A stretch of 64,000 nt of DNA, taken from assembly GCA_008632985.1 (NCBI GenBank), contig QPGO01000174.1, positions 1 through 64,000 on the forward strand, read 5' to 3'. Below the pieces are notes generated by a model that made no database searches, was not told the origin of the DNA, and saw only the letters and a program-made list of their open reading frames with translations. Shown in pieces: positions 20,231-57,069 of this stretch. This DNA is from Psammoneis japonica (Eukaryota). The position numbers were made by a program, and so were the translations under genes. Each line of letters starts with the position of its first letter. The first letter of the stretch is position 1.

Positions 20231-21844
20231 TTGCAGTGGCTCATTGAACTAAGAATGTTCATTTGCGTTGTCATTGACCACATGGTTTGGTGCCATCATT
20301 CTCATTTTCGGCAATGTCATTTTGTGTGCAACATTAAGAAGATGATTCCCATCTTTTTCTTGTCCAACGCACATGAAAACACTTTTTCGATCTGGAGTGA
20401 CTCCCGCCATGGGGACAGATCCAAGCAAATGACCCATTTCCTTGGTGGGGTGATTCCAGTGGAATTGATGTTGAAGCGATTGCAGCGTTCTTCAAAGTGT
20501 GGAGGTCAAAGACCAACAAGAACATGGATTTTCTGCATCCTCATGAGATGTGTCCCATTGGAAATGCCACTGCATTGTTTGGCCTGCCCACAGACCCCAA
20601 TGAAAACAATTCCAGTGAGGAGGGAGATCCAAAGGTTTGGGCAGAAATCTCCGCTAAAAACACTCGACGACTCATCCCAAACAGACTAGATCCAGGAGAA
20701 AAACTGCTTGTTGGTGCACTTGAGATGCTCTGCAATTCCATTTTTCACAAATGGAGCAGACTCAAGCAGGTTGCACTGACGTCTGGGCTGCCAATCATCA
20801 TCAACTGTGCAGACTGTCGAGGATGCAGCAAGGAAAACCTCCTGTTCAATGGGACCACATGCAGCACTCCAATCTTTTCCCTTTGTTCTGCATTCAAGGC
20901 AGAATCGTGCAATCGTGCATTTCCATTGCCAACATGTTTCGTTGTTGAGCATGCAAGGGGCAGTTCCAAAGAGTGGGATGCTGTTTTTGGGGAACAAGAT
21001 TTAACGCACCCTTGGGAAAACGAAACCAGCTGTGTGGAGAGGAACGAATTCAGGGTTTCCCAGTCAGGAAGACTGTCTTCGCCACAGAATGGCGCAAGAA
21101 GCATCCAAACACCAAGATCAACTGTTTGACATTGGACATGTCACAAGGGGAGCAGAATCAACATTTCGTTGTTCCCGGATCCCCTTTGAGGATTTTCAAA
21201 CCTGCAGAGCAACACTTGATGTGGACGGGAACTCGTGGTCAGGTCGTTTTGTCAAGCTCATGTCAATGAATTCTGTCGCAATAAAGGTGGAGCCGGAGTT
21301 TACTGATTTCTTCATGCCACAGCTTCAACCTTGGGTTCACTGCGCACCAGCACGGGCTGACATGTCGGATCTTGCCAACATTACAAAGTTCGTCCTGGCA
21401 GACAAGAATGCACCAAGAATGAAGAAAATTGTTCAGAATGCATGTGATTGGTCAAGGGATTTTTCTGTCTACAACAATGTGGTGGAATCAATCCTGCCCA
21501 TCTTGTCATTTTATGTGGAACTGCTGGACAGGAACAATCCTCATTGGGAAGACGTGTGGCGAAAAAACCTGCAACAATTGGTGAAGCCAGAGTTGAATTG
21601 GGCTGCGACTTGGTCAACCGAGGGACGAGAGAACATCAATTGCAGATGCCCTCAAACTTGCAACAAGGATGCATTGAGCAACAAGAGGAACAATCTTCCC
21701 TTCAGTTGCCAGCAACGCATCTGCTGCATGATGTCCACACATGGAATGTCTCAGAGTGAATCGTGCATCCATGCAAGCAATCCAGATTCTGGCGCATGTG
21801 GACCCGAGTGTGACCCTAACCTCTGCACAGCAACACAGACATGA
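20231..21844 (+). pseudogene. Hypermutated, frameshifted GT90 (CAP10/POGLUT-like) glycosyltransferase with C-terminal Cys-rich module
   Basis: 'FQTCRATLDVDGNSWSGRF..LMSMNSVAIKVEP....F...LQPWVHCAPARADMSDL' matches GT90 YxxxxDxDGNxWSxRF...PWVHYxPV. Frameshift near 21030. Confidence 0.85.
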
Positions 21845-30644: not shown

Positions 30645-30869
30645 GAGTCCAAAGAAGTGCAAACCCACAATGCCATGTTTGTGCCTTTTGAGTTTGTGAG
30701 CATTTTGCTCCCACAGCCTTTGCGGCCAAAGAAAGCATGCCGGCATGTCTGTGGAGCCGCGCCAGCAGCCAACAAAGCAGCGGCAATTGCGCCCCTGCTT
30801 GATTTTTCATGAGTGGCTTGCTGCGCAACTCAGAATGCACAGCTTCAACATGCTGTGGCATGAAATTGG

Positions 30870-36920: not shown

Positions 36921-37214
36921 TTGTCACAGTCCCAGTGCTTAGGGAGTCTATCATACCGCTATCCTCATTGCCCTTCGGTGTCATTGGATTGGCTCCGCCG
37001 TGCCAACAAAGACATTTGACATTTACACTGCAGGGGGATTCTATTTCTTTTCGTTCATTGTTTCAACAGTGTGGTCGATCGTCGGGCGACGTAAAAATAT
37101 TTGGCAGCGCAATAAGCTGCAATCTTTGAGCAGAAGAAACGATTCTTTAAATCACTGCCTAATACAGAATTAACTGTCTGTTTCAGAGTAACAGCTGCCC
37201 CTCACCTCATCGAA

Positions 37215-38291
37215 TCAAAAGTCGATGTTTGTGCTCTTGGCCTTCTTCATCCATGCAGCAACCTTTTCATCGCTTACTACTCCTCTTTTCTGGCCTCCCA
37301 TGCACTGGTCTTTGCGTTCACGTGCATGTTCTTCCGTGCACTTTGCAATCTTAATGACGTTTGCACTAAACTCCATGGAGCAAATACTGTCATCATTAGG
37401 CAGGACGCTCATCTCTTCTCGGCAAAACTCGTGACGATTCATAATGTCAATAAGTTGTTTGAATTTCTCAATCGCATTGTAGCGTGGCGAGGACCCGAGG
37501 CCAACCCCAGGCATTGGGTATGTATAGATATGAGGACGCTTGTCCCAATAGCTCGTTTCGACGTCTTCGACAATGTACAACCCGCCCGGAACGAGACATG
37601 GAAACATGTTGACAAAGCTAAACAATATGTGATGCGGTACGTGACTTCCATCATCAACAATAACATCCCAAGGGCCCTGCTTACAGAGAGTTTCCATGGT
37701 ATTGTGTTTTGATTGATCACCCCAAATAACCCGCAGCTTATCACGATTCTTGGTTACGAAATTGTCCATGTTGACTTTCTCGTCGACTCCCTTTGCCGGA
37801 TCACCATATGCCAAGCCCACGATTAGCTCTGGGTCATCAAAATACTCTGCCCATAAAGCTAAAGAGCGTCCTTTGTCTGCACCAATCTCTAGAAATTTGA
37901 TGCCCTGCTTCGATCGAAAGGGTGCCAACCAGCTTGCGTAGCTCTGCTCATAGTGATGGACAGAATACTTGTCCGTTCCAGTTCGCTTCATAATGTCACC
38001 AATTTTCTCTTTTGAAGAATACCCAGAAGCGCGGTCTGCAGATGGCGTCTCATCCTTGATGGAATTTATCTGTTCCCGTAAAGAGTTTTTCACTTTCTTG
38101 AGTTCTTCTATTTGCTGTTTTAGGTCTTGAATTGCTTCAAGAGACAAAGAGCGACCTTTGCCTCCTCCTGCCATAAACGAATCAATTTCGTGCTGCTGTT
38201 GCCGGAGGTTAGGTAATGAACTTTTTCTAACAACAATCACATTGAGGCAGACGCACACGACAAGAAGTGCGGCAAGAAGTTTCAACATCAT
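37215..38291 (-). CDS. Membrane-anchored class I SAM-dependent (sugar O-)methyltransferase, MycE-like
   Basis: Intact ORF. TM 'LLAALLVVCVCLNVIVV', coiled-coil stem, 'TDK...HHY...Y', 'FLEIG', 'GDQS', 'DVIVDDGSH', 'PGGLYIVEDVETSYW'. Alternative upstream ATG at 38375. Confidence 0.85.
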   Translation of the reverse strand: MMLKLLAALLVVCVCLNVIVVRKSSLPNLRQQQHEIDSFMAGGGKGRSLSLEAIQDLKQQIEELKKVKNSLREQINSIKDETPSADRASGYSSKEKIGDIMKRTGTDKYSVHHYEQSYASWLAPFRSKQGIKFLEIGADKGRSLALWAEYFDDPELIVGLAYGDPAKGVDEKVNMDNFVTKNRDKLRVIWGDQSKHNTMETLCKQGPWDVIVDDGSHVPHHILFSFVNMFPCLVPGGLYIVEDVETSYWDKRPHIYTYPMPGVGLGSSPRYNAIEKFKQLIDIMNRHEFCREEMSVLPNDDSICSMEFSANVIKIAKCTEEHARERKDQCMGGQKRGVVSDEKVAAWMKKAKSTNIDF

Positions 38292-38810
38292 CGTCAGCAG
38301 CGGCTTAATCCTCTTTCTTGCAAACAAAACCAGAGACGCACAATAGGAATCATTCGAAAATGTCGCGTGGGTCATAATTAATATTTTACATAAGGAAAAA
38401 CACAAAATCGTGTAGAAATGTACACAATGTCATACGAGAGAGTGATTAGAGCTAATAACTTTTCGGGAACTGAATTGAAATGCCATCTGATTGACGGCAC
38501 TGGCCTTCACTGTGTGAATCAAAATGCCATCAATCAGATGGCATTTCAATGGAGTGGCGCACTTTCCAAAAGTGCCGTGCGCAGTGCTCGTCTACATGCG
38601 GACAAATGGCGCCAGACTCTGTGCACCGAACACAACAAGATTTCACTCATTACGACAACAGCGCGGGAAGTCCATCACGTTGGGTGCGTCGACGTCGCTG
38701 TGCTTCTTGCGCACAAAAAATGCATCAATCCACTGACGTTGCGCATGCAAATTGGATGGGACACAGGATCTTGCAAATCTGGTGAAAAAATCGTCACCCC
38801 GTGCTTCACC

Positions 38811-39199
38811 GACGGGCTCCAGTCCTGGGTGGGACTTTTTGTGACATTTGCCCCGTAGAGTTCTACGTGCGAGCTCTGCACTTCGTACTCTGGTCAATGG
38901 ATGCACCCATCTTCGACATAAAAAAAATGGCCAAGTTTGCAGTGCATCTATCCCTGTTCACACTCGAAGTTTTGGACAATGCGCCTGCCCTGCGCCATTC
39001 TTAAGACACTCGAGAATGGCGTAGAAGAAAAAAATGTAAAAAGTTGTTCAATGGATGGCCTGACAAATGCACCATAAAATCACACAAAATTTCGCCAAAA
39101 TCACGTAGAAATGTACGTGCGCGACATACGACGCGATTCAAAAAACTGTCGATGTCACAGTTCAGCAGTGCGAGGTCCCACCTAGACCTGGAACGCGTC
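38811..39199 (+). mobile_element. MITE copy A (389 bp), partly spared from TpA loss
   Basis: TIR gacgggctccagtcctgggtgggac / gtcccacctagacctggaacgcgtc; TSD cacc on both sides. Confidence 0.85.
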
Positions 39200-39669
39200 C
39201 ACCGTGTTAAAAACCCCATGACAATCCTCCACAATGAATGGAAATCCAACTTTTTGTCAAAATCTGTTGTCGCGTGCTCACTTCAGTGCTTTGTCAATGC
39301 AGTCGACCGAGAAAACACTAAATGCACCCCAAAAAAAGTGAAAAACAACAGCCCCACTGCGGCCAAAACCTCTGCGTGATTTCAGCACCAAGTTGAGCGC
39401 GCCAAAAACCCTTCATCGCCAATGGCTCAACCAGCTCCCAAAACAACTTGATCATTGTCATTTGACATTGATGTCTCATTTCTTGTCATGTCAGTCCCAG
39501 TCCGCTGTCGTTGTTGTGTGTGTCCATTGCCGATGTGTCGGCGTCGTTGCCGCGATGTTTGTGTGTGAAGTGAACTCAAGTGAACATCTCTGCGAATTTT
39601 GTGGCACATTTTTGCGCGCGCACATTTTGTGCAGATCAGGCATGTGCACCGAATTTTTGAAAGTGTGCC

Positions 39670-40405
39670 ACTCCATTGATTTCCCGAGAAGTTGACATTC
39701 ATGTGCAGAGAGATGGACAGACTGACAACAGTTGTTTTTGGCACTCTCCTGCACAATTTCTACGTGATGACTCTCAGGACCCGAGTGATTCCCATTGCTG
39801 AGACCATCACGCATTGATTGCATGCAGCATGCTGCAATGCTCAGAGTGTGTCCCTGCGCACAGCGAACGACCACAAACGATGATTTGTGCGTGAAGCTCC
39901 CTCTCGTGCTCACCATTGCAGAGAAACGCACGCAGTGCGTGCGCGATGGTCATTGCAAGGGCTTGTGTGCAGTGTGAGTGGTCAGTTCAATGGCAATCTT
40001 TCACGCTGCAGAGTCATTTCTACAGAAATGTGCAGAACAGTGCCAAGACAATTGTCGAAAAGTCTGTCTGTCTGTCCTCAGTGAATTTTCTAACTTTGCA
40101 AAAAATGGACTTGACTGTTTTCTGATCAGGTGCATTTTTCTTCAATGCATTTGCAAAAATGCACCTGACCCGACAACAGTCAAGTCTGTTTTTGCACAAA
40201 TTTTTACATGACAGTTTCAGCACAAAAACGTGTGGATTCCACAGGCATCCACAGCTGTTTTGTGCTTTTTGCGTCGCCGCTCATTTTCGAAAGATTCCTG
40301 TTGCAATGGGAATTGTTTGAAAAAAAATGACCTGTGATGTGAATCGCATCAGTTGCTTGTGGACGTCCACAGAATCTACACATTTTTGCACCAAAACTCT
40401 GTCAT
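39670..40405. repeat. Cluster of fold-back inverted repeats
   Basis: Diverged IR 39670-39800 / 39975-40110; hairpin 40097-40196 (gacttgactgtt..caggtgcattttt / aaaaatgcacctg..aacagtcaagtc); IR 40208-40255 / 40355-40405. Confidence 0.75.
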
Positions 40406-41514
40406 CTTCTCAAAACTTTTGCAAAAAAGGACATTTTTCATTGGCGCTGGTCCAAACAATTTCTGTGCATTCAAGCCAACCCCAACCGAGTGAAAAAAGA
40501 AAATGAAAAAAGATGAAATGGCTCCAAAAGCTTGAGCTTACCCAGATTTTCACCCTCGACTCTTTTTCAACTCGGCCGAAACAAAAAAAGAGCCCGACTC
40601 TTTTTTCACAAACCTGGGAGCATGAAAAAAGAGAAAAGAGTGATGTGGGCCACAAGCTGTCACACATTTCGCACACGCGTCTTGGTTTGTGTGGGACACC
40701 AGCAAAGCAAGCCAAAGTTTGGCTCATGCGCCACACCGTCAAGTCACCATGGCAGTCTGTGATTGTTTTTGACGACTTCTTTCAATGTCATGACTGCAGA
40801 AGTGATGCCGGTTGACAATTTGAAGCAGGTGTGACATGTCTCTTGAAGGAATTGGTGAAGCATGTAGCAGCTCTTCTGCAACAGACCTTTTGTCTTCAAA
40901 TGATGTTGCCAGTCTTCACGTGCATCACAGAAAGTCAACACACAAGGTCCCTGAAGCAGATCTGTGTGACACAGGAATGACCGTGCTGACCAATTCACTG
41001 CAGATGCGACTCATTCAATGGGGCTGTTCTTGTGTTGTTTGATTTTAGATCAGGGGCTCAAAATGGCCTGAGAAGTGCACAAAAACTTTCCACTTGACAA
41101 CCATTTGAGTCACCCCACAAGCCTGTTGCATTTGCACTGAACAAAAAAAGAAATGGAGCCCACAGACCAAGAAAAAAATGGAGGTTCTGGTGGTGCCATT
41201 CTTGTTGTCACAAGGTGGAACTTCGATGCCGTCATGGGCCGTCATCTTCATTGTCATGTGAGGCCTCTTGCTTTGCATGCCCAAGACACCCAGACATTTG
41301 GCTTTTTAATTTTCGCGCCGGTCAGGTCACCAAAACGACAAAACGAAAAAAAGAGTTGAGATTGGCTCTTTTTCATTTGCTCAGCTGGGGTTGGCCTCAT
41401 CAAACAATGACTCTGCAGCACGAAAGATTGCTGCTGCATTTTTTTTTCAGCTCAAATTTGGCCAGAAAAGCTCATGATTTTCTGCTGAAAAAATTTTTGC
41501 CACACTTGCAACAC

Positions 41515-41910
41515 GACACGTTCCAGGCCTGGGTGGGAGCTCGAAGCACTGACGTGTGACACAATTGTTTTTCATCATCCGTCACATGTTTCGCGCGCAC
41601 ATTTCCACGTGTGACATTTCAAAAAATTGTTCCAGACTCGCTGTTTTGCAAAACCCCAGACATTTCATTTGACAAAATTGCAGGAACACAAATGGGCCAG
41701 GTGCATTCTTCAATGTCTGAAGAATGCAACTGGCCAAGCAGAAAATGATGCACTTCAATCACAGACGAGTTTGTGCATTCGCAAAATTGCCTCATTTTCT
41801 GTTGGTGATCATTGACACATTAATCACCTGATGATTTTACTTTGGAGCTCACACGCAGAATTCTGCGGGCCCAATGTTGCACGGATTCCCACCTTCATCT
41901 GGAACGCATC
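41515..41910 (-). mobile_element. MITE copy B (396 bp), inverted relative to A and C
   Basis: Ends gacacgttccaggcctgggtggga / tcccaccttcatctggaacgcatc; TSD acac on both sides. Confidence 0.85.
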
Positions 41911-42349
41911 ACACGGTGACCATGGCTGCTGCTTGTGATGATTCAGGCGAGTGCAGTGGAGGGGTTCCACTGCAAACAATGGGAATCTTTCAAAAATGAC
42001 CCACAATGTGAAACCAACAAATTGCTCAAGGACGTCTGCAGAATCTTCATGTTTTTGCACCAAAGCTGTTGTCTTCTCAAAACTTGTCCAAAAAAATGGA
42101 CTTTGCTGCCAACTGACCCACCCTTTTTTTTTTCAAACGTTCTTTTTTTTTTTGCTGGCAGCAAGCCCAATGTGTGCACATGGACCCAAGTGCAGTTTGC
42201 AACAAGCAATCAATGCTCGTGTGTTGTCAATCAATGCACTGGCAATGACAGAAAAATGCAAATGCTCTGCATGCATCAGAGCATTAAATGCAAAGATCCC
42301 ACACAAAATCACAAACCTTCAAACATGTGTGTTTGACATTTCAAATTTT

Positions 42350-44450
42350 CCATGACATTTCAAATGCAACGACAACGGCAACCGTGAACGCAACACACCC
42401 CATCAATGACCACAAACTCACCTTGACACTGCCATGTGTCGACAGCTTGCAATTCATCTCAAATGAACATGCCTTGCTGTGCTTTGAAAATGACAACCTG
42501 CATTGTCAGAGGTTGAGATTTAGCTCCTCTCCACATCCACAGATGTGGCTTGCAAAAAACCCAGTGTTAAAAGTCGACATTGAACTTTCTAAATTGCAAA
42601 AAGGGTCCCCCAGATTTTGGACGAATGCACGCTCCAAAACAAAATCACACAAACAAAACATTGCTCACATCTGAAATTACTTCATTTGCAACATTTGTGA
42701 TGCAAGCAAGCAAATCTCCACCCATGGAGATTTGCTCAAGACCGGTGGTTGAAGGGTTGGGGTGTGCATCTTGTGTGGTCCAGCTGGCAGGGCTGTGGCC
42801 AGCTTCTGCTGGTGTTTCAAGAAATCTTCCATTCATCCATTGCCAGTGTCTTTGCAAGACAGTTCATTTTCTTTTGTTGGGAGGAACGTGTTGGAAGCAT
42901 TTGTTGACAAACACATGCACAGTTGGTGAACCCAATCAGTGCCACCTCCATTGGTTGCCTTTGACCACAAATGCACCAGAGTCCTGAGGTTTCTGGTCAC
43001 CAAAAATTGGATCACATGAGCCAATGTCACCCACCCAAATTTGCCATCATCTGGGGTGGGTGCTTCTGAAGACACTTCAAGTCCTCCAACAAAAACAAGA
43101 GCATGTCATGGTGTGCCTGTGTGTTGGTGGACAGATCACGTGGTGCCAAGGCATCCTGATGGAGCTGCCAGTTTTGTTGGTGCAAGCAGACGAACCGCCC
43201 TTGTCAGTGCTTGGCATGAAACCCAAATGTTGCACCAGGAGCAAGAGTGTTCACAAGCTTTCATCTTCACAATGAAGATGCAGAACAACCAGGGTTCAAG
43301 TGGATGTCATTGGCACACATCAGCTCCTGTCTGGTCTGTGCACAAGCCCATTGGAAGAAGGAGATCCTTCTCTGGATTGAAATCTTTGGGGAGATTGTTG
43401 CATGTGTTGGAGTGCCATTTGTTTCAAACTGTTTCTCTGAGGTTGCAGTCATCTGCAGGAACAAACTTTTGGAGCTGTTCATGCATCGATTGGTTGACAT
43501 TGAGATTTTGATGTCGTCAAAAAGGGTGCAGGGCAGCAAGCAAGTCCCGGGAAAAACTTGGTGCCCACCAATGATGCATGTGTCTGGCTTTGGCATGCAC
43601 ACCTTTGTGCTGTCTCTTTTCAGCAACTGTTTGTGCCAAAGAGCCTTGCATGCATTGAGCTTTTTTCTTGTGGAGACATTGCAGCAGAGTGAGCAGCAAA
43701 TCGAAAAATCCTTGAGTGGCACTGGAATTTTGTCACACAGTGTGATCAGCTCAAGACAAGCTTCCTCAGCCAATTTGAGGCTGCAACCAAGTGGAAGGGA
43801 TGACTGTTCCTTGCCAACATCATCAGGGGGGTGAGCCAGCAAAAGGTGCTCTTCTTCATCAATGCCGCAACCCTTCGGCAGAGTTGGTGCCGGGAAACAT
43901 CTCCAAAAGACATGACTTGTCCTTGTTGTCTCCATTGGAATGAGATCCATTGGTGCATGCAGTGTCATCATCTTGTTCAACAGAGGCACTGTTCTCAAAA
44001 TCCACATCAGCGGCACTGAACTCTGCATCACATCCTGCCATGGCACCACATGACAAAAGGAAGGAAACAGCAGAAGAGCCAGATTGGCTGGAGGGTGCCA
44101 ATGAGGACTCCTTGTTGCTGTGTTGACAAACAAGCAAAGCAGTTGCTTGGGACAGCGTGCCCAAATCACTGGCAGCAACATCAACACAACCAATTTGGTG
44201 AAGCATGCACTGGCAATGGTGGGAACAAACCATGCCCAACAATTGCAATTTGCAGGGTGGGGATTGCCAAGATTGACCAAATCAAAGAGAGAGTCGCTGG
44301 AAGTGAGTGAACTGATTGATTTTAAAATTGGGTTGTTGTGCAGGCATGAAAGCTGACTGAGAATGCAAATGCCTTGCGGCTGGGCAGACATGAATGTTGG
44401 AATGATGGGAAACAGAATTTGAAAAATCAGCAATTAAAACATTCAGTCAC
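42350..44450 (-). mobile_element. Second, more decayed Plavaka-like transposase remnant
   Basis: 'LELITLCDKIPVPL', a 'W..GFMP'-like segment near 43220 and 'FFGDQKPQD' near 42990, in the expected order. Confidence 0.4.
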
Positions 44451-46857
44451 AGCCAAATGCAATGTTTTTGAAACTTGGGCAAGTGAATTTGAGTCATGTC
44501 AGTGAACACATGACAACAAATGAAACCAATGGCAATCCATTGTTTGGGGCTTGACATTTGCAAATGCAGGAAATTCTAGATTGCAGTGGCAAATGGCCGG
44601 GTGGCAAGGCACACATGACCGGCGCTGGGAGGAGTGCTGACAAAACAAACACATCAGAAAACAACACCAAGTTGTGGCAACCATGGTGCAGAGACTTGTC
44701 AATCCAGCCGAGTGGAGGGCAAGAGACCATGTCAAAGGAAAGGTGTTTCTCAGTGTTGCACTCATCTTTGATGCAAGGCAGCTGGAGGAAACCTGCATGC
44801 TGTGCAGAAACTGCGCCCCCAGAACAGTGGGCCAACGCTGATGGACGGAATGCCAGCAGACCTGCCAGAAGCAAAGCAAAAAACACACCTGCATTTCCTG
44901 TGGATGAAAATGAAACAAAACAGGTTGCACCAGGATTGACCAGCAATGAAGTGATCCAATGCATGTCAGGCCCAGCAAGATGAATTTCACAGCAAGCACC
45001 ATCACCAAGGATTGCCGCGGACAAAGAGATGACAAACTGATGTTGGGGACATGTTGTTGCTGATGATGCAGTGCTTTGTGCATGCTGCAACAAGAACAAT
45101 TGCATCTTGCCTTTGCCGGAATGATTCCAGGATTGATCGTTGAATCCAACATTGCAGATGGTGCTCTGCAACTGCTTGTTGTGACTGGTTGTGGGAGATG
45201 TTCATTGGAAGAAAAGCCTCTCTGACAACACAAGGTCAGGCACGTCGTGTGCCAAGGCATTCACCCACATGCTCCTGCAGAACAATTTTGCAGCATGGCA
45301 CATGGATCACAAGAGCAACAACAAGGACAGTTGTTTGATGTCAGACTGCAATGTGGAGCTCGACGACCAAGGAAGCCCCACCAGAAGGGAAGACTTGTGT
45401 GAGAAGATGATGCCAGATGCAACCGTTGGATCAAGCTCATTTACCATTTTGGAAAAAGACCTGAAGAGTCAACAGAGCAACGCACAGTGGAGGAAATGTC
45501 AAACAAATTCAAAGAGGCATGGGAGAAGTCCACATTGATTGTTTTGACAGAGGTCACGAGCAAGCTGGAAAGCAACAAGAGCTTGCCTGACAGGGAATGC
45601 AGCGCCAAGAAAAGAAAGTGCTTGAGATGCCTGAAGCACTCCATGGCAGGGAACTCCAGGAATGGAGTGGAAGAAAGTGCACCCAGGACCTGATGCAAGA
45701 TGCCCAGGACTTGCAAAGGATGGTCCCTGAGGGCAAACAAGTTCTTTGAGAAACTGGTGAGGGAAATCAAACAAGACATTGTGAGTGAACAACCAGGTGG
45801 ATGGGAGGATTAGCACAGGAAGTTTGCAGCAGGTTGCAATGAGAAAGTGGAGAAAGACAACAACGGGTCAGGGGACAAGGGTGACCACATGGCAAGCTGC
45901 GCTGAGATGCATGAGCTAGAGTTGATGCCAGTTCAGTGGATTGCAGAGTGAATCTAAATTGAAAAACTGAATTCCAGCTGGCAAGTGAGCCAGAAGGATG
46001 CATCACAAAATGGCCAGTTGGGACACCAACCACCCAATCCCTTGTCAGTCAGTTGTCAACAGCCATCAAATGGAGTGTCATGCCAGAGTTAACTTGTTGC
46101 AATGCAACGAACTTGTTGGTTTGCACATCCTTGATTCAAAACCATGGACATTTGTTGGAGGTGCCAGGTGCTCATTTTTGCACAAATCACACTTGTTTGT
46201 CACAAACAACTGTGGTCAGTGACAAATCTGACTCATTGGGACATGAACACATCGACGTGCTTGCGCTCACACATGTTTTGTCAGACTGAGGTCTGGCCAT
46301 CTGTGATTGTGAGGATTCATTGATTCGCCCCCCTGATGATGCAAGGCATTGCAGCTGAAGGTTGCAATGTTTGGACATTGATTTTTGACAATGCAGCAAT
46401 GACACAAGATTGCATTGTGTGATTGTCCTTGTCAGGCACAGAAACAAAGGGGTGTCAGAGTTGTCCACTGTGCTGAGCACAATCACCAGTTTGAAAGCAA
46501 GCGCGCACACTGACAAGTGCAAAATTCAAAAATCCATCATCTCAAAAAGGAGAAGCAATGCTGTGTTGCATTCACAAATTGAGGTGAACAGTTGAAAGAC
46601 AAAAGCAACAGGCACTCAGACATTTGTTGACATTGACGACTTTTAAAAAACATGGCCAATCGATTGGCCAGGAGCCAATCTCAAATCCCAACCCAAAAAT
46701 GACCAAGGCAGTGCGAAATTCGGTTTGTCACATGTTCATTTGCAAAGCAACCCATGTCATGAAGTCCCAAAGCCTTCGAAAGTCATTGGATGCCATTTCA
46801 TGCACGGCAAAGACCGCTTGCAAATTCGGTCATTTTGAAAGTGGCCAGCCCCAAACC

Positions 46858-47041
46858 TGAGCGGTCTTGACAAGTTGTCCACGAATGCTTTCTAAAAATT
46901 GTGGGAAAAGCTGCAATTAACTGCAGCCACAGTGTTTGGGTTTCTGTTGCAGAATTTCTTCGAGGTGTCAACAATCCCGGTCATTCAAATCTCCCGAATC
47001 TTGCAGCTGCTGATGCAATTGTGACGCAGAAGTTTGCTTCA
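46858..47041 (-). repeat. 3' LTR (184 bp)
   Basis: Direct repeat of 52386-52573. Confidence 0.95.
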
Positions 47042-50000
47042 CTCTTCCCTTCCGCGATTCATGCGAATGCTTTGAATCGCAATCCACTTGATCATGCCGA
47101 AGTCGACACGGCAAAATGCACCAAATGTTGATTCTTTCAAATGCATGAGGCACTCTTTGCATGGTGACATTTCCATTCACATGAACCTGTGTGATGGGAA
47201 AGGGACCAAAAGATCTTTCTTCCAATTTGGTGGGATCGTCTGTTTTGACCAAAATTTGCTGCCCGACACGACAATCGAAAAAGTGTCTTTTGAGATTTTG
47301 CCGACGTGAGTTGTCATCAACCAACACTTGCCAATGATCCTGAACAGCAATTGAATCTGCAATGAGAGGCAAATCGAGGAACATGTCTCTCTGGCAGATG
47401 AGAGCTCCTGGCGAAATTCCCAAAACTCTCAAGGTGGCACATCGTAGACCGTGCATGGTTGCAGCCAATGCGTTGTCAACAATCTGTTGAGCCTCTGTCA
47501 TGTTGTAAGGAGGATGTCCCCTGACTGTGGTTCAAATGATGTTGCCAGCCATTTGATGCATTCTTTTGCAAATGGCGTTGGCTTGAGGATTTCTAGCGGT
47601 GGTTTCCACGTCTTTGATTCTCCAGCTTTTGCCAACAGAATCTGAAATGGCTCACCAATGAATTCACCGCCCTTGTCATGGATGCAGCGGTTTGGCTTTG
47701 GATGTCTTGCCAACCAACAATTGGCAAACTTCATCTGCACATGATCTGAAGTCTTGTTGTCAATGTGAGCCAATTCCACAAGGTTGGAAACAGTGTCAAT
47801 CACTGTCAATGCATCAAACTCATTTTCCTGTTGTTGCACTTGTGCTTTCCAAGGACCAATTGAGTCAATGGCCACTTCATCCCAAGGAACTAAAGGAGCT
47901 TCTCTTGGTGGCAAGCAACCACATCCAACTCCCCAAAGTTTGTTCCTTTGGCATGTGTCGCAATGATGATTTTCGACCAATCGGCGCAACGACAGATGAC
48001 AGCAATGCATGCGAATCGTGCAACAGAGCTTTTGCATGCCACAATGCCCCAAAACTTGATGACACCACCTAACCACAGGCGCCAACAAAGCAGTTGGCAA
48101 AGCAATTTTCCAATCATTTTCTTGAACGTTGTTTTCAGGCCTCCAACAAATTAACGGAACTCCGCCAACGCATCGAGTCGGAAATCGAAGCGGATTCCTC
48201 TGCCGCTCTTGATTCAGCTCACAATCTTCAAACTGAAACCTTTGCATGTCAGGATTGTTCAAGGGGCATTGCATTTCTTTCAGACTTGGACAACTCAAAA
48301 AACAATCCACCAATTCTTGATCTTGAACGGTGCAGAATAGAGTTTTTAATTCCGGGCCCAAATTTTCCTCGAGCGACTCGTCTTCTGGAGCCACAGCAGC
48401 TGGAGGAACCGAAAAATCCACAACAGCGCCTTTCGACTCCACTTTAGAAGAACTCTTCCCTTCCACGGTTTTCTCCATGGGAGGAAATTGTGAAAAGAAA
48501 TCAGCTAGAATGTTCTCTTTGCCTTTAACATGTTCAAACTTTAGCGCAAATTCTTTGAGAAAAAGTCGCCAGCGGAGCACTCGTTGCGCATTGAGCGTCT
48601 TGAAAGCAAAATTCTTGTGATCTGTGTGGACTGTTGTTTCAGCTCCCAACAACATAGAGCGAAATTCTTTGAAACAAAGAACTGCAGCAAGCATTTCTTT
48701 CTCCACAGCAGAACAATTCTTTTGAGCTGCGTTGAGTTTTTGGGACCAACATGCGATCAGCTTGCCATTCTGCATGACAACCGCACCAAGCTGACAGTCG
48801 CTGGCATCTGTGTAAATTTGAAAAGGAAGGTTGTGATCGGGACAAGCAAGTGACACATCACCCACCACAATGGCCTTGATCTCCTCAAAGGCTTTCTGAC
48901 AAGCTGGAGTCCACTCAAAATGTTGTTTTCCAGTCAAATCGGTCAATGGCGCCAAAACGTGAGATCGCCGAGGCCACATGTCACGATGACAAGTGACGGC
49001 TCCAACAAAAGATCTAAGTTGTGCATGGTTCTTGGGAGGAGTGAGCTTGAGCACAGCCTCTGCTTTCTTCTTCCAAGGCTTGACACCTTCTGGAGTCATC
49101 CAATGTCCCAAAAAATCAGTTTCTTGAATGGCCCATTTGCACTTGAGTGGGTTCACTTTCAAACCGTTTTGTTCCAAACATTGCAGTGCGGCACTCAACA
49201 CTGCCAAATGCTCAGACCAAACCATTGAGAAGAGGCCAACATCATCAACAAAACAATCTGCATCAAGCTCATTCATCACTTCTTCAATGACTGCTTGAGC
49301 AACATCTGCTGCTGGCTTCAAACCCATCGCAAGCCGACAATGTTGAAACTTGCCGCGCAAGGAGTGACAACAGTGCACAGTTCTTTGGATTCTTCATCTG
49401 GCTCTAAAGTGTGACAGAACATGGACAGATCCAACTTGGTGAAGCACTTGCACCCTTTTCTCTTCTTGACAATGTCTTGTGTTCTTGGCAAAGGACAGAT
49501 CAGCCTCTTCAGTGCCTTGTTGAGCGCACAAAAATCGGATGCCCACCGCACTCGTTGATCCTTTCTAGGAACAACAAATGAAGGAGATGCCCAACAGGTG
49601 GGACCACATGGCCTCAGCACTTCTGTCTGAACTAAATGCTGAAGTGCTTTCTTGAAAACCTCATCATGAACCTTTGGAACTGAGTGTGGTCGAGCATGAA
49701 CCGGAATCGCATTAGGATCGATTTCCAAATGAACCAATTCATGTGGGTGTTGACCCAATTTTCCGTCGAACACTTTTGGGAACTTTGCTGGCACTTGCTG
49801 CAACTCCAGTTGTTGCTCTCTTGAAAGGTGTGTTTGCCTCTTAGCCACTTCTTCCGGAGACACTGACTCGCACTTGGCGTCCAGAATTTGCACAGCAAAT
49901 GCACAAAACTCGACCACGTCGATTTCTTCTTCTTCGACTTCTGGACCTGCAAGAGCAAAACAAGCATTCTCTGCATTGTCCCAAAAGGCAAGTTCTTTCA

Positions 50001-51866
50001 CAGGTGTGAACTTGTCCAACCACTTGACTGTCCTTGATGAGAAATTTACATCAACACCCGCCTTGGTCAAAAAATCCAATCCAAGAATCACGTCGCAACG
50101 ACACGGTGTTTGAAATGTCAGAGCTTTCTGGAAATCAATGCTTCTTGATCTGTCAAATTCAGGCAGCATCATTGTTTCCAAACCGACTGTTCTGCTGCTT
50201 TTCATTGGCCCTGCAGCTGCATTGCATGCCACTGTTTTCTTGAGCAGGCTTGGAGCAGCTCCACGTGCCAAACATCGCTCGTGAACAAGAGTGGTCATGC
50301 TGCCTGAATCAAATGATGCTCTCAACAAACGAGAAGAGTGAGCTCCATTCATTTGTTTGCATGCAAGCACTGATGCAGGCACCATGTTGGGATTCATGTT
50401 TTTTGTTTTGGGTGCCGGCATGCCAGCATGAAGCAATCCCATCGGCTCTTCTTGATTTTTCACGCCGTCAATTTCATGTGACAAATGTGCATCATGTGAA
50501 GATTTGTGTTCAATTGGTGCATTTGTGTCAACAGCAATGGTGTCGTCAACTTCAAAGCTGACACCAGGACTGGAGCAGCACTCCAAACTGGATCATGATC
50601 CAGGTCCTCTTAGATGTGGACCTTGTCCGACATCCGTTCCTCCTGACATCTCGTCAGGACCTCCTGGCAGACCACAGCCTGCCATGTCAAAATGGCACAC
50701 ATCTGCACCCCATTCTTGTGACTGAGTGTCAGTCGGAGGAGCTCATTGAGCCGGATGAGCATTTGATTCTTCTGAACTGCTCTGCACCTGATTTTGATTC
50801 GCACAAAAATTTTGAGGTGAATTCTGCGGACCGCATCCTCGGCCCACACTGTTTTGGTTGTAACCACGGCCATGTCCACCTTGACCACGTCCAAAACCAT
50901 TGTTGGGAGCACATCCACCATCGCCACGTCCACGTCCAGCGCAGTTGGTGTTCTGAGGACCACAAAATTGGCCTCCATAATTTCCTCAGCCTGGACATGG
51001 GTTTCGACCTCGTCCACGACCTGCATCTCGGCCTGCACTTGGCAAACCTCGGCCACCTCTCTGAAAATGAGGATTTGGACCGCAATTTGGGCTCTTGGGA
51101 TTCTCCCTGCAATTTTGCCACAGATGGGGTGTTGCAGAATCCTTGTGCAACCAACAACAAGAATCGGGACCAAACTTCTTCCCATTCCCGGCAGATTCCG
51201 TGTCTCCAGCCTTGCGCTTCTTGGAATCATCATCAGGCTTGGCAGCACCTTTCTGATCAGCAAATCCTTTCTCGTTGGACACACACTGAATGACATCTTC
51301 CAAAGAATCAGCACTGACATCCTTTCCAGCATGCACACAACTCTGTTTCCATGTCATCAGCATGCCTGTGAATGTGATGTTCTTGATCTGCTGCTCATTG
51401 AGCAAAGGTTCAGCTCCAGGTGGCTTGCCAGCACAACGCGACATTTGAATCATCCTGTCAGCACACTTGCGAGGAGAATCGCCAAAAGGTTTAGAAGAAT
51501 TTTTCAAAAATTCAAACATCGCATCACGCACTTGATGATTGCAACATTGCTGACAAAAGCGTGTGATTTCTGCGTCAAACCTGGCCATGGTCCGATCTGC
51601 TTCTGCGACACCTGAAACCAAATTGCTCCACGTGTCTTGAGCGTTGTCTTCTAACACTTCTTCAAAATGGGTGAATTTTTTCAGGTCCTTCATCACAATC
51701 TCAGTGTTCGGCACAGTTCTCAAAGTGCTCTGCAGTGCAGAGCAAGCACTCGATGCCGCACTTGCCGGTGAACTGAGGGCACATTTTCTGTTTCTTGGCA
51801 CCATCGTCACAGTTCTGTGCGAGTTTCACTTTGTCCAAATCTCCGTGTTTGAAGGTTGGTTTGCAT

Positions 51867-52262
51867 GATGGGTTCCAGTCCCAGGTGGGACTTTTTGTGA
51901 CATTGGGCCCACAGAATTCTGCGTGCGAGCTCCGCAGCAAAATCACCAAGCAACGCACACATGAATGATTGCCAACAGAAAAAGAGGCAATTTTGCTGAC
52001 GCATCTCCTCCTCCACACTTGAAGCACATTCTTTGCAGCATGCCCGGGTGTGTTCTTCAGACATTAAAGAATGTGCCCAGTGCGTTTGTGTTGTCACAAA
52101 CGCAGACAACAGAAAGCCTTTGGCTTCGCAAAACAGGCAGTGTGGAACAAATTTTTGTGACAGAACACGCAGAAATGTGCGCGCGAAACATGTGGCGGAT
52201 GATGACAAACAATTGTGTCACAGTTGAGCAGTGCGAGGTCTCACCCAGAGCTGGAATGCGTC
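51867..52262 (+). mobile_element. MITE copy C (396 bp) nested at the 5' end of the Gypsy gag
   Basis: Ends gatgggttccagtcccaggtgggac / gtctcacccagagctggaatgcgtc; TSD gcat on both sides. Confidence 0.85.
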
Positions 52263-52385
52263 GCATGCAAAGCACCGCGCACGGTGCTCTCAGCAAAGCT
52301 CTCACCAAATGCGACACTGCGTTTGAGGCAAAGGATGCACAACAAAGAAAGGAGAAGGAAAGAACAAGACACAGTGTGATCACAG

Positions 52386-52573
52386 TGAATGGTCTTGACA
52401 AGTTGTCGGTCCACGAGTGCTTTCTAAAAATTGTGAGAAAAGCTGTGATTGACTGCAGCCACAGTGTTTGGGTTTCTGTCGCAGAATTTCTTCGTGGTGT
52501 CAACAATCCCGGTCATTCGAATCTCCCGAATCTTGCAGCTGCTGACGCAATTATGATGCAGAAGTTTTCTTCA
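52386..52573 (-). repeat. 5' LTR (188 bp)
   Basis: Direct repeat of 46858-47041 with a 4-bp indel. Confidence 0.95.
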
Positions 52574-52669
52574 AAACCTGCCTGCGCCTGGTGCCCCGAC
52601 TGCCGGCAGACTGAATGCCGCAGCAACTGACTTTGTCTTGCCCGTCTGTCTCTGTCAGGGCTTGGGCAG

Positions 52670-54870
52670 GGAGTTGCATGAAATGTCAAAATTTTCATTT
52701 TTCCCTGCAAAAACGCACAGAATGTCAGAGAGACCTGCCTGCACGCGAGTGCCACCACAGTCTGCACGATGCTGCGAAAGTTTGTGCACTTGCCACCAAA
52801 ACGCTGCTCGCACTTTTTGCCAGGGGATGTGCCACAGACACACAACATTCGAAGCATTTGGCTGCAGGACAAATCCTGTGTTTTTGGGGCTCTGTTTGAT
52901 TTGACAAAATGTCGAAATTCCATGGAAGGTTTCTCAACAATTGCCTTTTTTCCCAACTGGTGCTGAGACAAAATGCCCCCAGAAATGCAGGTGGTTGTGT
53001 CTTCACCAGACCCCGCCAAAATTTCTCGTTTGAGAAGACAACCCACTGGATGGAGTGAGAATGTTTGAATGATGTTGCACAGTGCGTGAAAAATGACAAC
53101 CTGCGCTCACTCAATTGGGTTGGCATGGTGACATGAAGCACTGAAATGAACGACAAAACGGTGTGACAATCGATGATGACGACACCTGCCTTCTATCGGT
53201 GCCTGCCTGTGAGCTCATTTTCTGCTGTGTTCAAATTTGCATGTCCATGCACACATCACAAGCAGTTGCTGCTGTGTGAGCACATCACGTTGTCACGGCG
53301 TTTCTGCATGCATGATGACACGCATGGCACCGTGCGACTGCAAGAGACGCCGTTGAGTTCCCTTCTCGATCCCGAACTCCGATTTGAACCAGTCACGACT
53401 GTCTCAACCTCATCGCTTCGTGCGACAGCACAGATTTCAAATTCAAACCCGCCAAATGGCTCCAACCGCCAAAACCAAAAAAGGCCTCTTGGGGGGGGAC
53501 TGGGGCTAGAGACTGTTTTGGATTGTTGTTGTTCAAGATTCCCTTGCATGCCGTTCCAAAAGCGTTCCGAGAACGTTCTCACATGCACTGATTCGCGCCG
53601 AAATCAAACTTTGGAGCCGGTCAATTCGCCAATGAGACATGTGATGCATTGCAATTGGTGCACTGTTGTTGGAACTGTTTGAGTGTGGCACAACAGTGTA
53701 AAAGTTTAACAGATTATGTGGATTTATTGCAAAAAGGTACACCCGTCAAAACAGGTTTCTATTTTCTCTAAGAAAAAGAACGGCTGGCAGAAGTCTCAAC
53801 AATTTTGAGTTACAGTGGCTGTGGGTTGAACCACAAGGGTGTGTTGTAACTGCTGGCATTGTTTGACAATAAACCACATCTGCAACAACCGCCAACAGCT
53901 CCAACACGGAAACACCATTCGACGAAATGGGCATTTCGTCATTCCCGTGTTTCCACCGTTCCGGGACCGCACCAAAAGCGTTCCAAAACCGCACCAAAAG
54001 CGTTCCCGAAGGGAATCTCTCTAAAAGGCCTGACATCAAAACATTGTTTTTAGACGTTGGAAACGAATGAGAACCCTGCCCGACAACACATGGAACCATC
54101 AATCCACCTGCGGCAACAAAAACACTGCTGCATGGCAACAGCGCGGCATCAATCATTTGAGCACAATGTAAAATGACAAATGCGCAACACACGACTGTGC
54201 CACTCACCACGCAAATGCGCCTGCCCAGAGCCACAGTGGATTGTCTTGCAAGGACAGTCATTCAGAGGCAGACAAGATCGGAATGGATTTGGAACCAATG
54301 GGTTCGCGTCACACTTGAGCACTTTGCAGGACATGCAGCAGTGTGCGAGTTGTGGGGCCTTCTTCAAGATGAAGGCAACCTTTCTCATGGGTTCCTGCCC
54401 ACTCACTTGTTGTGTGCCCTTGTTTTCTGAATCTGCATTGTTCTGAAACCATTTTGCCAGGAATCTGTGGTGGAGCACACGAAGACACGATAAGAAAATG
54501 GTTTTGTGTCGGAACAGAGTCAACCGCAAATCTGCACTTGTTGCGCACCATCATTCCAATCTCTTTTTGAAAATCAACGCACTGGCATTGGCTTCACCAT
54601 CTTGTCATCTTAGATTGACTGGCAACACAGGTTTGCGGATGACAATGGCATGCACGGTGATGGTGGACGGCACTGACTTTCGCTTCGCATCAACGAACCA
54701 TCAACGCGTTCGCCGTTCGACCCCATCTAATCTGGTGTCTGGTGTTCGCATGTTCATAGCCCTAAATGCAACGTTTTAGGGGATGTGTAAAATGAATTAT
54801 CGTAACGAAAAAACACGAAAAACCACGAAAAACAGGGAAAAACGAAAATTTCGACATTTCATGCAACTCC
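52670..54870 (+). mobile_element. TIR DNA transposon containing a PIF/Harbinger-ISL2EU-like transposase remnant
   Basis: About 38-bp TIR ggagttgcatgaaatgtc(a/g)aaattttc(a/g)tttttccctg at both ends; 3-bp flank cag on both sides. 54300-54690: 'HFAG...VCELW.LL...PTHLLCALVF' and 'CTVMVDGTDFR'. The remnant could belong to a nested element. Confidence 0.75.
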
Positions 54871-55137
54871 CAGGGGGGAGACACAGACGGATGTTTTTAT
54901 TGCCATATCATACCGTGTGAAATTATTCATACGGTGTATGTACTGTACCGTACGGCACGTAGGGTGTAGGGCCCTATACCAGGTAGCTAGCTATAGGTAA
55001 CGAAGCACGATGGCGGCTTGAAACCAAAACTCTCTTCCTCTTTTACCGATTTACAATACTGTAAAGTACCTCTGGATACATCGTAGGACCCGGCAGGAAA
55101 GTCACTTCATTTGCAGGAGAAAAGAGTAGCTGAAATT

Positions 55138-56476
55138 ATGACCGATCCATTGCGATGCGTCAAGAGAAAACTGTTGTTTCCAATGATCGTGTGGGTTTTC
55201 ATCTGCATTCGCAGATTCAGTCTAAGTCACTCTCGCTTAATGGCGCAGTTTTCCCCGTCAGGTTTCGTCGACCATCAATCCATAATTGCAAGTGGATCAT
55301 CAGTGTCGTACAGCAAGAACATTTCGATTGTTGTGGGGTTGCGCGGCGAAATGGGAAATCAGATCTCCAGAATAGCGTTCGCTCGTGCAGTGCAGCTGTG
55401 GGCCCGAGACGACTTTGGGATTCACAACACTGAGCTTATCATTAAAGCAGAGAACGCACAAGGAGATTGGTACAAGACTCATGTTGAAGAATCAATGGTG
55501 ACGACGAAACGATGTTTCCCAAATATGCAGCAATACGATTTTGGAGCTGGCAACACAGAAGAAGTAGCAGCTGCCTTTGCGCAGCAATTGGAGTGGCTAG
55601 GAGAAGCTAATGCATCTCGACTTTCTCTTTTAGAAGATTCTTGTTTTGATGAAAATTGCCTTAACGATGCTCTCCGGTATCTGAAGACGCTGTTACAAGC
55701 CCCACCTCATCCATCCAACACCAACGCATCAATATCGATCCCGATATTGCTAGCATCACAATATAGCAATTATGCATTTGTGGTGATGGACAGATACTAC
55801 CAAGAGTTTCGGAACCTGTTTGTGTTCGATGAAGAAGTGTGTTGTAAACTACGACCGGATCCAGACGAGAGTGTGTTTGTAAGTTTCATATATTTATCAA
55901 CAAAAAATGCTGGCGTTAATGTTATCTTATCACGTCCGTGCGATTTTCCAGCACTTTCGAAATTTCAAGCGTGAATTGAAGTCGAGATCGAATGATTTAG
56001 GTTATGTAGAATTGAGCCCGAACAAAACAGCCTATGAATTGTTTGGCCATTTACGGCCAGGTGACAAGGTCGCGATAACTACACGATTCGGTGGAGACGC
56101 AGCGCAGAAATATGTTTCCGCGCTTGAATCACGTGGTTTGGTTGTTCGCTTGGTCAAGGGACAGTCGGCAGTTGAAGATTTCTGCTTCCTTCTCTCTGCG
56201 CAAAAGGAACTAGTAGGAATGGCAATGTCCACCTTCACTATTTGGGCAGGTTACATTGGCCATGCAAAACGAGTCGTTTGGTATTCCATGGATACTCCAT
56301 CTCGTCGTCGACGCTTTGGTGACAAACTGTTTGAGCACTACAATTGGACAGATCCTCAACTGAAACAAAGGGTGATTTTTCAGCTGTACAAGTCTGAAGA
56401 AGCAGAGAAACTTGATACAAAATTGAGACTCGAAAGGGGATCGCCGCCCTTGATCAAATCGCGCACGGCATTCTAA
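55138..56476 (+). CDS. Alpha-1,2-fucosyltransferase-like (GT11-like) gene; exons 55138-55878 and 55952-56476
   Basis: N-terminal TM and 'LRGEMGNQ'. A 73-bp intron gtaagt...ttttccag joins 'PDPDESVF' to 'HFRNF' in frame. Also 'DFCFL' and 'STFTIWA'. Normal TpA. Confidence 0.8.
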
Positions 56477-57069
56477 TCACATTGAACAAGTCTTCTCGTT
56501 GTCATAAGTCTTCAGGTGTACGACGTTAAATCTTCCAAAATAAACTTCTTAACGAAAGTGATTGTACCAAGACACTTTGAATAGAAACTCAAAATTGCTG
56601 GAAAACCAGGGTGGCTGGCATTGAATGTTGAAAAATGCACTCAGCCCTGAACAAAAACAATGTGTTGTGAATTGCACATGAAACAGACACTTTGGAAAAA
56701 CACATCAAACAAAATGAGCGAGTTTGTGTGATGCGCTGTTTTGGCGGCAAATTGAAAAAAAGAAAATCCACGCACTTTGCTGCAATCCCAAAAATGGCAT
56801 GAACCATCAAACATGACAGTCATCCATGTTGCCAGTGGCTCCACCACCTGCTGCCACAGCAGCGCCACCCCAGTTGCAGAGCCATGCACACATGCCTGTT
56901 GGCTGTGTGACCATCGTCCACTGGGAGGGTCAACGTGCAGCAGCACACAAGGTGACAAGTTCATTCACAAGCCATTGCATTGCAAAGTGAGAGAAGTGAG
57001 GAGTGAGAGGCATGGAGGGGTGGGACTGATGGCATGGTCAATGCTCTTTGGCAGGCCTGGTTGCATTTA

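Follow-up and report, generated by a model that had tools for sequence, protein, structure and literature searches.

Loss of TpA to TpG or CpA on both strands of a degenerate Ty3/Gypsy retrotransposon and its surroundings points to regional mutation of integrated DNA

Introduction

This study concerns a 64,000-nucleotide stretch from Psammoneis japonica (positions 1 to 64,000, forward strand, of contig QPGO01000174.1 in GenBank assembly GCA_008632985.1; hereafter "the window") and a degenerate Ty3/Gypsy long terminal repeat (LTR) retrotransposon that it carries. Conserved Tyr codons of this retrotransposon have been turned almost without exception into Cys or His codons, and the dinucleotide TpA is nearly gone from the element and from most of the DNA around it. 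We consider it highly probable that these changes are the product of a regional process, which mutates double-stranded DNA after insertion and converts TpA to TpG or CpA on either strand. An earlier note on this DNA, made from the letters alone, had proposed that both strands are hit and that the changes arose by mutation of DNA rather than by RNA editing. The observation is confirmed here and the interpretation is supported; the mechanism is only partly known.

Targeted hypermutation as a means of defence against mobile DNA is established for cytosine, namely as fungal repeat-induced point mutation (RIP) and through APOBEC enzymes in animals. For A:T pairs, hypermutation is described in a single preprint of 2026, which deals with one alga and names no enzyme (10.64898/2026.01.13.699255). 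In the window, the signature is near saturation and affects different targets. New from the window are codon-level proof of action on two strands, the absence of tracts, evidence from miniature inverted-repeat transposable element (MITE)-like copies and gene relics, and in particular the preference for 5'-TAY-3' and the overlap with CpG decay.

Results

Fate of conserved tyrosine codons in pol

The Gypsy element occupies positions 46863..52573 on the minus strand, as judged by Pfam matches, tblastn and terminal repeats, and its three frames carry gag, protease-reverse transcriptase (RT), RNase H and integrase. The TA count is down to 31, corresponding to an observed/expected ratio (o/e) of 0.077. 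In tblastn, residues 6-1138 of homologue P0001 (1142 residues) matched over 50487..47100, which delimits the pol region (47100..50487, minus strand). This match is spread over three frames and thus indicates two frameshifts in pol; one in-frame stop is present at 47534 and is of the CGA>TGA type. An open reading frame (ORF) of 631 codons from stop to stop (47498..49393, minus strand) comprises the C-terminal part of RVT_1, RT_RNaseH_2/RT_RNaseH, Integrase_H2C2 and rve, according to Pfam, the latter two with scores under the curated cut-offs. Its nearest relative among 356 long homologues is again P0001 (65% identity over 92% of the ORF). The domain order RT, RNase H, integrase and the flanking LTR-like repeats identify a Ty3/Gypsy element.

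The 631-codon ORF encodes 1 Tyr, 33 Cys and 23 His. The earlier note had been right about the single Tyr, while its length of 626 residues was too short. As Tyr accounts for 2.5-4.7% of the residues in the 120 listed homologues, Cys and His at the respective columns are not a feature of the homologues. For a quantitative comparison, 60 homologues were aligned to the window frame by frame, with the frames left unjoined, and columns shared by at least 70% of homologues were regarded as conserved. The window keeps 385 of the 490 conserved columns in pol. Tyr was retained in 1 of 21 columns, as compared to 384 of 469 columns for all other residues (Fisher p = 1.6e-13). The 21 Tyr columns are now occupied by 12 Cys (TGT or TGC), 7 His (CAT or CAC), 1 Phe (TTT) and 1 Tyr (TAC), i.e. 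19 of the 20 altered codons are TGY or CAY, and TAY>TGY stands against TAY>CAY at 12 to 7. A similar picture emerged for the 631-residue ORF alone, in which 14 columns with Tyr in at least 70% of 40 homologues hold 7 Cys, 5 His, 1 Phe and 1 Tyr.

Two pairs of adjacent Tyr codons illustrate the two outcomes side by side. At 48986..48991 (minus strand), Tyr-Tyr is replaced by Cys-His in the peptide AVTCHRDMW (TGT at 48991, CAT at 48988), and the alignment shows Tyr in 47 of 60 and in 60 of 60 homologues at these columns. The second pair, located in the upstream frame at 49411..49416 (minus strand; TGT at 49416, CAC at 49413), now reads MFCH; here Tyr is present in 53 of 57 and 55 of 57 homologues. 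Both pairs had been pointed out in the earlier note, the first as lying near 48985, as Tyr codons altered in opposite ways. This description is borne out by TGT-CAT and TGT-CAC, and since Tyr prevails in 47-60 of 57-60 homologues at all four columns, inherited Cys or His does not account for them. Judged by its codons, the pair at 48986..48991 represents mutation of opposite strands 3 bases apart.

All 105 altered conserved columns of pol were classified by codon parsimony. The change was TA>TG in 24 columns and TA>CA in 16, with 3 further columns of ambiguous Ile>Met type (ATA>ATG or transversion). CG>CA was assigned to 10 columns and CG>TG to 7 (plus 3 ambiguous), other A:T>G:C transitions to 3 and other G:C>A:T transitions to 5 (plus 3 ambiguous), while 22 columns reflect transversions and 9 two or more changes. 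Hence, 40 A:T>G:C transitions (43 including the ambiguous Ile>Met cases) occurred at TpA and 3 elsewhere, indicating that this type of change is nearly restricted to TpA in pol. Accordingly, a T precedes every change from Ile to Val (6), from Thr to Ala (4) and from Met to Val (2). G:C>A:T changes of the CpG type make up 17-20 of the 105 altered columns; they represent a separate companion process and are not the cause of Tyr loss.

A second, older Gypsy pol fragment is located at 6670-7232 (minus strand) and keeps 57 of 104 conserved columns, with an in-frame TGA at a conserved Arg. Its 8 Tyr columns now hold 3 Phe, 2 Cys, 1 His and 1 Trp, with none kept (one more lies within a pair at 6735/6732). 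Because its divergence precludes a reliable count, the fragment does not enter the totals.

Strand symmetry and distribution of the events

On the sense strand, A>G and T>C changes were found in a ratio of 12:7 for Tyr codons (binomial p = 0.36) and of 24:16 for all codon classes (p = 0.27). Thus, 16 of 40 events and 7 of 19 Tyr changes are T>C on the sense strand. The presence of both types at about 1:1 excludes sense-only editing of an RNA intermediate, which would have left a bias for A>G on this strand.

The earlier note had also raised the possibility of processive tracts, in which neighboring sites are mutated on the same strand. No such tracts were found, either by a runs test within the Gypsy element or when the succession of TG and CA was followed through the window. 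In the element, 21 runs were counted for the 40 TA events (20.2 expected; z = +0.27) and 11 for the 19 Tyr events (9.8 expected). In the TA-poor DNA of the window as a whole, the succession of TG and CA is likewise not clustered (z = +1.4), in contrast to the strong clustering of five controls, each a pair of complementary dinucleotides (z = -6 to -30). Both strands were mutated site by site, and no strand-coherent tracts remain.

Mutation of integrated DNA and of non-retroelement sequences

Terminal-repeat alignment identified a 3' LTR-like repeat of 179 nt (46863..47041) and a 5' LTR-like repeat of 183 nt (52391..52573), both on the minus strand. Their spacing of 5.5 kb agrees with a joint in contigs assembled from public runs, which leads from 52510 to 46976 (5535 back). 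When aligned, the two repeats show 12 differing columns and a single indel of 4 nt. The differences comprise 1 CA/TG swap, 2 sites with TA vs TG, 4 sites with CpG vs TpG or CpA, 2 other transitions and 2 transversions. As LTRs are identical at integration, differences at TA sites demonstrate mutation after insertion.

A MITE-like element with terminal inverted repeats (TIRs) is present inside the Gypsy element between gag and the 5' LTR (51866..52263, minus strand), and copy alignment revealed a second copy at 41514..41911 (plus strand). Both are about 400 bases in size, are inverted relative to each other and reside in DNA almost devoid of TA, with 1 TA left at 51800-52330 and 2 at 41450-41980, i.e. 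per 531 bases. In a core of 386 columns (71% identity), the copies differ by 18 adjacent CA<->TG double transitions, while the seven other classes of double transitions sum up to 6. Such a swap results when one ancestral TA is resolved on different strands in the two copies. The element at 51866..52263 appears to belong to a very high-copy family: summed contig depth in public run X1, which is not a copy number, reached 80,884 at 51812-52245 as compared to about 1,000 in the rest of the Gypsy element and 66 in a host gene.

Another TIR element, 567 bases in length (33470-34036), carries perfect terminal inverted repeats of 12 bases and keeps 10 TA amid TA-poor DNA. At its ends it is similar to the heavily mutated MITE-like copies (41514-41911 and 51866-52263), and it may represent a more recent insertion with few mutations so far.

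Former genes are affected, too. A relic of a GT90-type glycosyltransferase gene, recognized by Pfam and homologue alignment, lies in TA-poor DNA at 20437..21601 (plus strand). It keeps 74 of 96 conserved columns, and its 6 conserved Tyr have become 3 Cys, 1 His, 1 Phe and 1 Tyr. A GT10-like ORF in TA-poor DNA (14914-16275, minus strand; Pfam match below cut-off) encodes 1 Tyr in 454 residues. Together with intact GT47 and FUT8-like genes in TA-normal islands, these relics look like a gene cluster, some members of which would have lost their function through the TpA process. No transposase family was found in 157 ORFs scanned from TA-poor and intermediate DNA outside the Gypsy element. Of the targets listed in the earlier note, namely MITEs, DNA transposons and host genes, MITE-like elements and gene relics are indeed hit, a transposase-coding DNA transposon was not recovered and intact host genes are spared.

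Other genomic copies were assessed by comparing public-run contigs with positions 44000-57000 of the window at 80% likeness or more. Run X1 contigs differed from the window at 2,020 places, comprising 1,675 transitions and 345 transversions. When all runs were pooled (2,032 places), 14 of the 40 best-supported places formed 7 adjacent CA<->TG swaps; the remainder were 4 places with TA vs TG or CA, 7 of CpG type and 15 others. Taken together, the Tyr codons (12:7), all codon classes (24:16), the LTRs, the MITE-like copies, the GT90 relic and the domain structure described below uphold the view that both strands were affected and that the mutations arose at the level of DNA.

Domain structure of the window and CpG decay

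The whole window contains 638 TA (o/e 0.15), with TG at 1.70, CA at 1.65 and CG at 0.45 o/e. Scoring of TA per 250 bases divides it into TA-poor DNA with counts of 0-4, which extends over most of the window, and islands with counts of 5-24. In TA-poor DNA (about 51 kb or about 80% of the window), o/e is 0.054 for TA, 1.76 for TG+CA and 0.35 for CpG. The corresponding values in gene islands are 0.50 for TA and 0.89 for CpG. Accordingly, TA o/e and CpG o/e are correlated in 1-kb bins (Spearman 0.66). This overlap of TpA loss with CpG decay suggests that the targets are cytosine-methylated, silenced chromatin.

TA-normal islands are located at 1-1900, 7500-9500, 28500-30750, 36750-39250 and 54700-56750; a further small island at 33500-34000 corresponds to the 567-base TIR element. 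Each island larger than 1 kb contains an intact ORF with normal Tyr content, encoding a GT47 exostosin, a FUT8-like protein, a methyltransferase or others. The domain edges are abrupt: a TA at 1778 is followed by the next at 2329, and there is none between 27900 and 28503. Ten non-coding island flanks have TA o/e values of 0.31-1.05, compared to 0.49-0.58 in the coding parts of islands, and since the flanks are as rich in TA as the genes, codon selection is not the cause of the islands.

The Gypsy element and its flanks are embedded in a continuous TA-poor domain (39500..53500, 0-4 TA per 250 bases). The nearest TA-normal island (54700..56750, plus strand, TA o/e 0.31-1.05) consists of an intact host gene (ORFs 55087-55971 and 55883-56473) and its flanks. 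Within 44000-57000, summed contig depth, which is not a copy number, ranged from 240 to 80,884 in TA-poor bins vs 66-69 in three host-gene bins. The gene (55087-56473) is separated from the TA-poor domain by an intermediate zone (53500-54700) with TA o/e 0.19, CpG o/e 0.74 and a high summed contig depth of about 2,500-3,800, possibly a domain-edge repeat that has been mutated in part.

Role of the flanking bases

For analysis of sequence context, the window was partitioned in a TA-poor part of 51.6 kb with 182 TA and gene islands of 12.4 kb with 456 TA. When both strands are counted, the base 3' of the A in surviving TAs of TA-poor DNA is A in 57%, G in 28%, C in 10% and T in 4% of cases. The corresponding shares in gene islands are 26% for A, 21% for G, 27% for C and 27% for T (p = 9e-38 for the difference in a chi-square test). 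ATAT, ATAC and GTAC are missing altogether from the 182 survivors, while TTAA (56), CTAA (57) and CTAG (15) make up 128 of them, vs 94 of 456 in islands. Relative to islands, abundance is 0.02 for TAT, 0.04 for TAC, 0.13 for TAG and 0.21 for TAA, which gives the erasure order TAT > TAC > TAG > TAA. TTAA, CTAA and CTAG also account for 22 of the 31 TAs left inside the Gypsy element. Six intact Gypsy relatives from metagenome contigs show TA o/e values of 0.55-0.64 and even contexts, with 21% A, 28% C, 22% G and 29% T; in these relatives, 47 of 406 TAs belong to the three types. The skew among survivors is therefore not ancestral to such elements.

Codons of pol report on the same preference. 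Following T, conserved Ile, Met and Thr codons, in which A is followed by pyrimidine, have become G-initial in 13 cases, and one T|A junction survives. Conserved Asn and Lys codons, in which A is followed by purine, never became G-initial, and 25 of 48 are now preceded by C (Fisher p = 2e-4 vs Ile/Met/Thr). This C is the outcome of a hit on the opposite strand. Tyr codons split in 8 Cys : 2 His after a pyrimidine and in 4 Cys : 5 His after a purine. The codon and survivor counts indicate that the flanking base largely determines which strand is mutated, with 5'-TAY-3' as the preferred target.

Discussion

The signature, its strand symmetry, its dependence on context, its action after insertion and its domain structure are directly observed in the window. 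They are accommodated by the following model. After integration of the Gypsy element, its double-stranded DNA and the surrounding repeat DNA would undergo mutation, in which the A:T pair of a 5'-TA-3' step is replaced by G:C, yielding TG or CA depending on the strand mutated. Each TA would be resolved independently, and even sites 3 bases apart take opposite strands. The preferred target on the edited strand would be 5'-TAY-3', with TAA and TAG mutated several-fold more slowly, and for this reason the survivors are mostly TTAA, CTAA and CTAG. The process is regional, in that it covers repeats, MITE-like elements and gene relics and ends no more than a few hundred bases from intact single-copy genes. 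As to the chemistry, we infer an enzymatic deamination of adenine to hypoxanthine in DNA, which would be read as G at the next replication. The deaminase might be recruited to silenced DNA and the process might serve in genome defence. The more specific scenario of a natural editor of adenine in double-stranded DNA, with 5'-TAY-3' specificity, recruited to silenced cytosine-methylated repeats and thus a mirror image of RIP, converting all TAs of transposons, MITEs and gene copies up to their inactivation, is put forward tentatively, with clearly less than an even chance of being correct.

Several observations weigh against this model or parts of it. TpA is self-complementary, and consequently A>G at TAY and T>C at RTA are inseparable from sequence. 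The test for TAY preference based on Tyr codons alone shows the trend that was predicted, but falls short of significance (p = 0.17, or 0.089 when the GT90 relic is included). The second codon of both Tyr-Tyr pairs became CAY although the opposite strand reads TAA, and the sole surviving conserved Tyr is encoded by TAC, so the TAY rule is not absolute. At saturation, separate rounds of mutation would overwrite tracts, and lack of clustering is therefore still compatible with processivity in a single round. Furthermore, no more than 2 of the 157 ORFs outside the Gypsy element match Pfam, i.e. the GT10-like ORF below cut-off and the GT90 relic, which leaves the greater part of the TA-poor DNA without a recognisable origin. 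Finally, the idea that repeats are targeted rests on one host-gene island in the 13 kb compared and on a depth that is no copy number.

The first of these points leaves some room for a thymine-centred chemistry, which we judge unlikely, albeit less so than the other alternatives. Here, the T in 5'-RTA-3' would be modified, e.g. to 5-hydroxymethyl- or 5-formyluracil by a dioxygenase of the TET/JBP type, and would mispair with G to cause T>C. A mispair with G is formed by 5-formyluracil, and dioxygenases that modify T occur among protists. All codon and context counts fit this possibility equally well, as TAY on one strand is RTA on the other, and nothing in the sequence opposes it. What speaks for adenine is that its deamination is the sole published, still hypothetical, proposal for the signature.

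A further alternative dispenses with targeting: TpA>TpG/CpA could be the default mutational bias of the genome, and islands would be kept by purifying selection or transcription-coupled repair. This would fit with the intact ORF present in every TA-normal island larger than 1 kb and with the large TA-poor share of the window (about 80%). However, the non-coding island flanks (TA o/e 0.31-1.05) are as high in TA as the coding parts (0.49-0.58), the edges at 1778/2329 and 27900-28503 are abrupt, and the 567-base TIR element at 33470-34036 keeps 10 TA amid TA-poor DNA. We therefore deem a default bias improbable, although there is still room for a variant in which transcription or open chromatin protects the islands.

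Systematic miscalls at methylated motifs occur on some long-read platforms. By analogy, a modified base at TpA in heterochromatin could be miscalled throughout, in which case TG and CA would not be real. This is very improbable, because separately assembled public-run contigs agree with the window (0 other letters at 44000-44861 and 2 at 45918-46607, although the run may share the assembly's sample), paralogous copies are distinguished by CA<->TG swaps and by single TA/TG/CA differences, a pattern expected of real divergence, and miscalls would not produce a stable choice between TG and CA that tracks the flanking base.

Even less credit can be given to editing within the retrotransposition cycle, in which an ADAR-type enzyme would act on the RNA and on minus-strand cDNA in the RNA:DNA hybrid, so that the copy was mutated before it integrated. 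On a retroelement's sense strand, such editing would yield both A>G and T>C, and ADARs favor U 5' of the edited A (cited in the main text of 10.64898/2026.01.13.699255). This loophole is closed by the LTR-like ends, which differ at TA sites, by the same changes in the MITE-like copies and the glycosyltransferase relic and by a TA-poor domain that reaches kilobases past the Gypsy element; in addition, the 3' preference T>C>G>A disagrees with the hot spot of wild-type ADAR2, given as 5'-UAG in a passage of PMC10661471. Biased gene conversion and selection against TA were rejected, since neither would single out TpA in a TAY context in DNA that is dead.

The closest known case is the chlorarachniophyte alga Bigelowiella natans, for which Mettrop et al. 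describe TpA hypermutation of integrated DNA of giant viruses and virophages (10.64898/2026.01.13.699255). According to the main text of this preprint, a signature of A>G/T>C at TpA only was measured directly in mutation-accumulation lines, where the process is ongoing and episodic and proceeds about 1000-fold above the background rate. Adenine deamination is proposed there with an ADAT2 homologue as candidate, no enzyme is identified, and RIP is named as an analogue. Both cases have in common that changes are nearly exclusively A>G/T>C, occur at TpA only and yield TpG or CpA depending on the strand. Both are confined to regions of foreign or mobile origin, while the remainder (in the present case, of the window) mutates normally, and both feature clusters poor in TpA and rich in CpA+TpG, which in B. 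natans include genes for reverse transcriptase and DDE endonuclease. The cases differ in lineage and in targets, which in the preprint's measurements are two viral inserts and here are an LTR retrotransposon, MITE-like elements, gene relics and unclassified repeats. They also differ in extent: depletion in B. natans is mild (rho 0.45 for nucleocytoplasmic large DNA viruses, NCLDV, in active regions), whereas about 51 kb are close to saturation here, at an o/e of 0.054. Nothing in the preprint's main text corresponds to the TAY preference or to the overlap with CpG decay; the words "context", "flanking" and "trinucleotide" do not occur in it, and diatoms are not mentioned. In our literature searches, the preprint, its supplements aside, was the sole description of this process, and none was found in diatoms.

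Other systems share individual traits with the process described here. Fungal RIP, the functional analogue, likewise brings about transitions at the DNA level in repeats and in mobile elements, which it disables, in a dinucleotide context, on both strands and in skewed domains beside unmutated genes. In Neurospora and other ascomycetes, RIP is triggered by duplication, is premeiotic and depends on RID/DIM-2. It replaces C:G by T:A mostly at CpA and thereby creates TpA, whereas in the window TpA is destroyed and CpA/TpG are created. Decay of CpG by way of 5-methylcytosine also removes a self-complementary dinucleotide, which is lost to TpG/CpA on either strand and in the same domains here, but it concerns the other palindromic dinucleotide and proceeds in G:C>A:T direction. 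The tRNA adenosine deaminases TadA/ADAT modify A at position 34, following U33, in tRNA loops. They thus resemble the process in that the deaminated A follows U or T, as in TpA. In contrast, natural enzymes of this family act on tRNA loops, and the 3' preference seen here is for T at least as much as for C. The TadA-8e variant is reported to edit A of DNA in a 'YAC' context, as stated in a passage of PMC13109818. ADARs share the A>G change with a preference for 5' U or T. However, they act at the RNA level and would affect merely the sense strand of retro-copies, whereas both strands, non-retro elements and flanks are affected here, and since TAG is relatively spared in the window while UAG is the hot spot of ADAR2, an ADAR-like enzyme fits less well.

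A candidate enzyme is constrained by these data in that it must act on integrated DNA, address either strand site by site without forming tracts and prefer TAY over TAR. If the model is right and the host is a diatom, the system would be ancient in eukaryotes or would have evolved at least twice, and the enzyme would represent a new class of DNA adenine deaminases. A natural DNA adenine deaminase, if it exists, would also be of interest for the design of base editors.

The process has practical consequences for annotation. Tyr>Cys/His changes mask transposon proteins from profile searches. A possible example is an open frame of 605 codons at 2356-4170 (minus strand) with 0 Tyr, 43 Cys and 33 His, for which no Pfam family and, in the homologue search, one weak partial relative were found; it is probably a heavily mutated mobile-element protein beyond profile recognition. 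In addition, DNA free of TA is nearly devoid of stop codons, and dead repeats therefore resemble long ORFs. As TAA and TAG are nearly gone and TGA is the sole stop left, long open frames arise in all six frames, and ORF length is no sign of a live gene. Long open frames are abundant: the window's 64 kb contain 112 with 130 codons or more, and 29 with 80 codons or more occur in the 6 kb surrounding the Gypsy ORF. The TA-poor DNA also contains an assembly gap of 266 N at 19117-19382.

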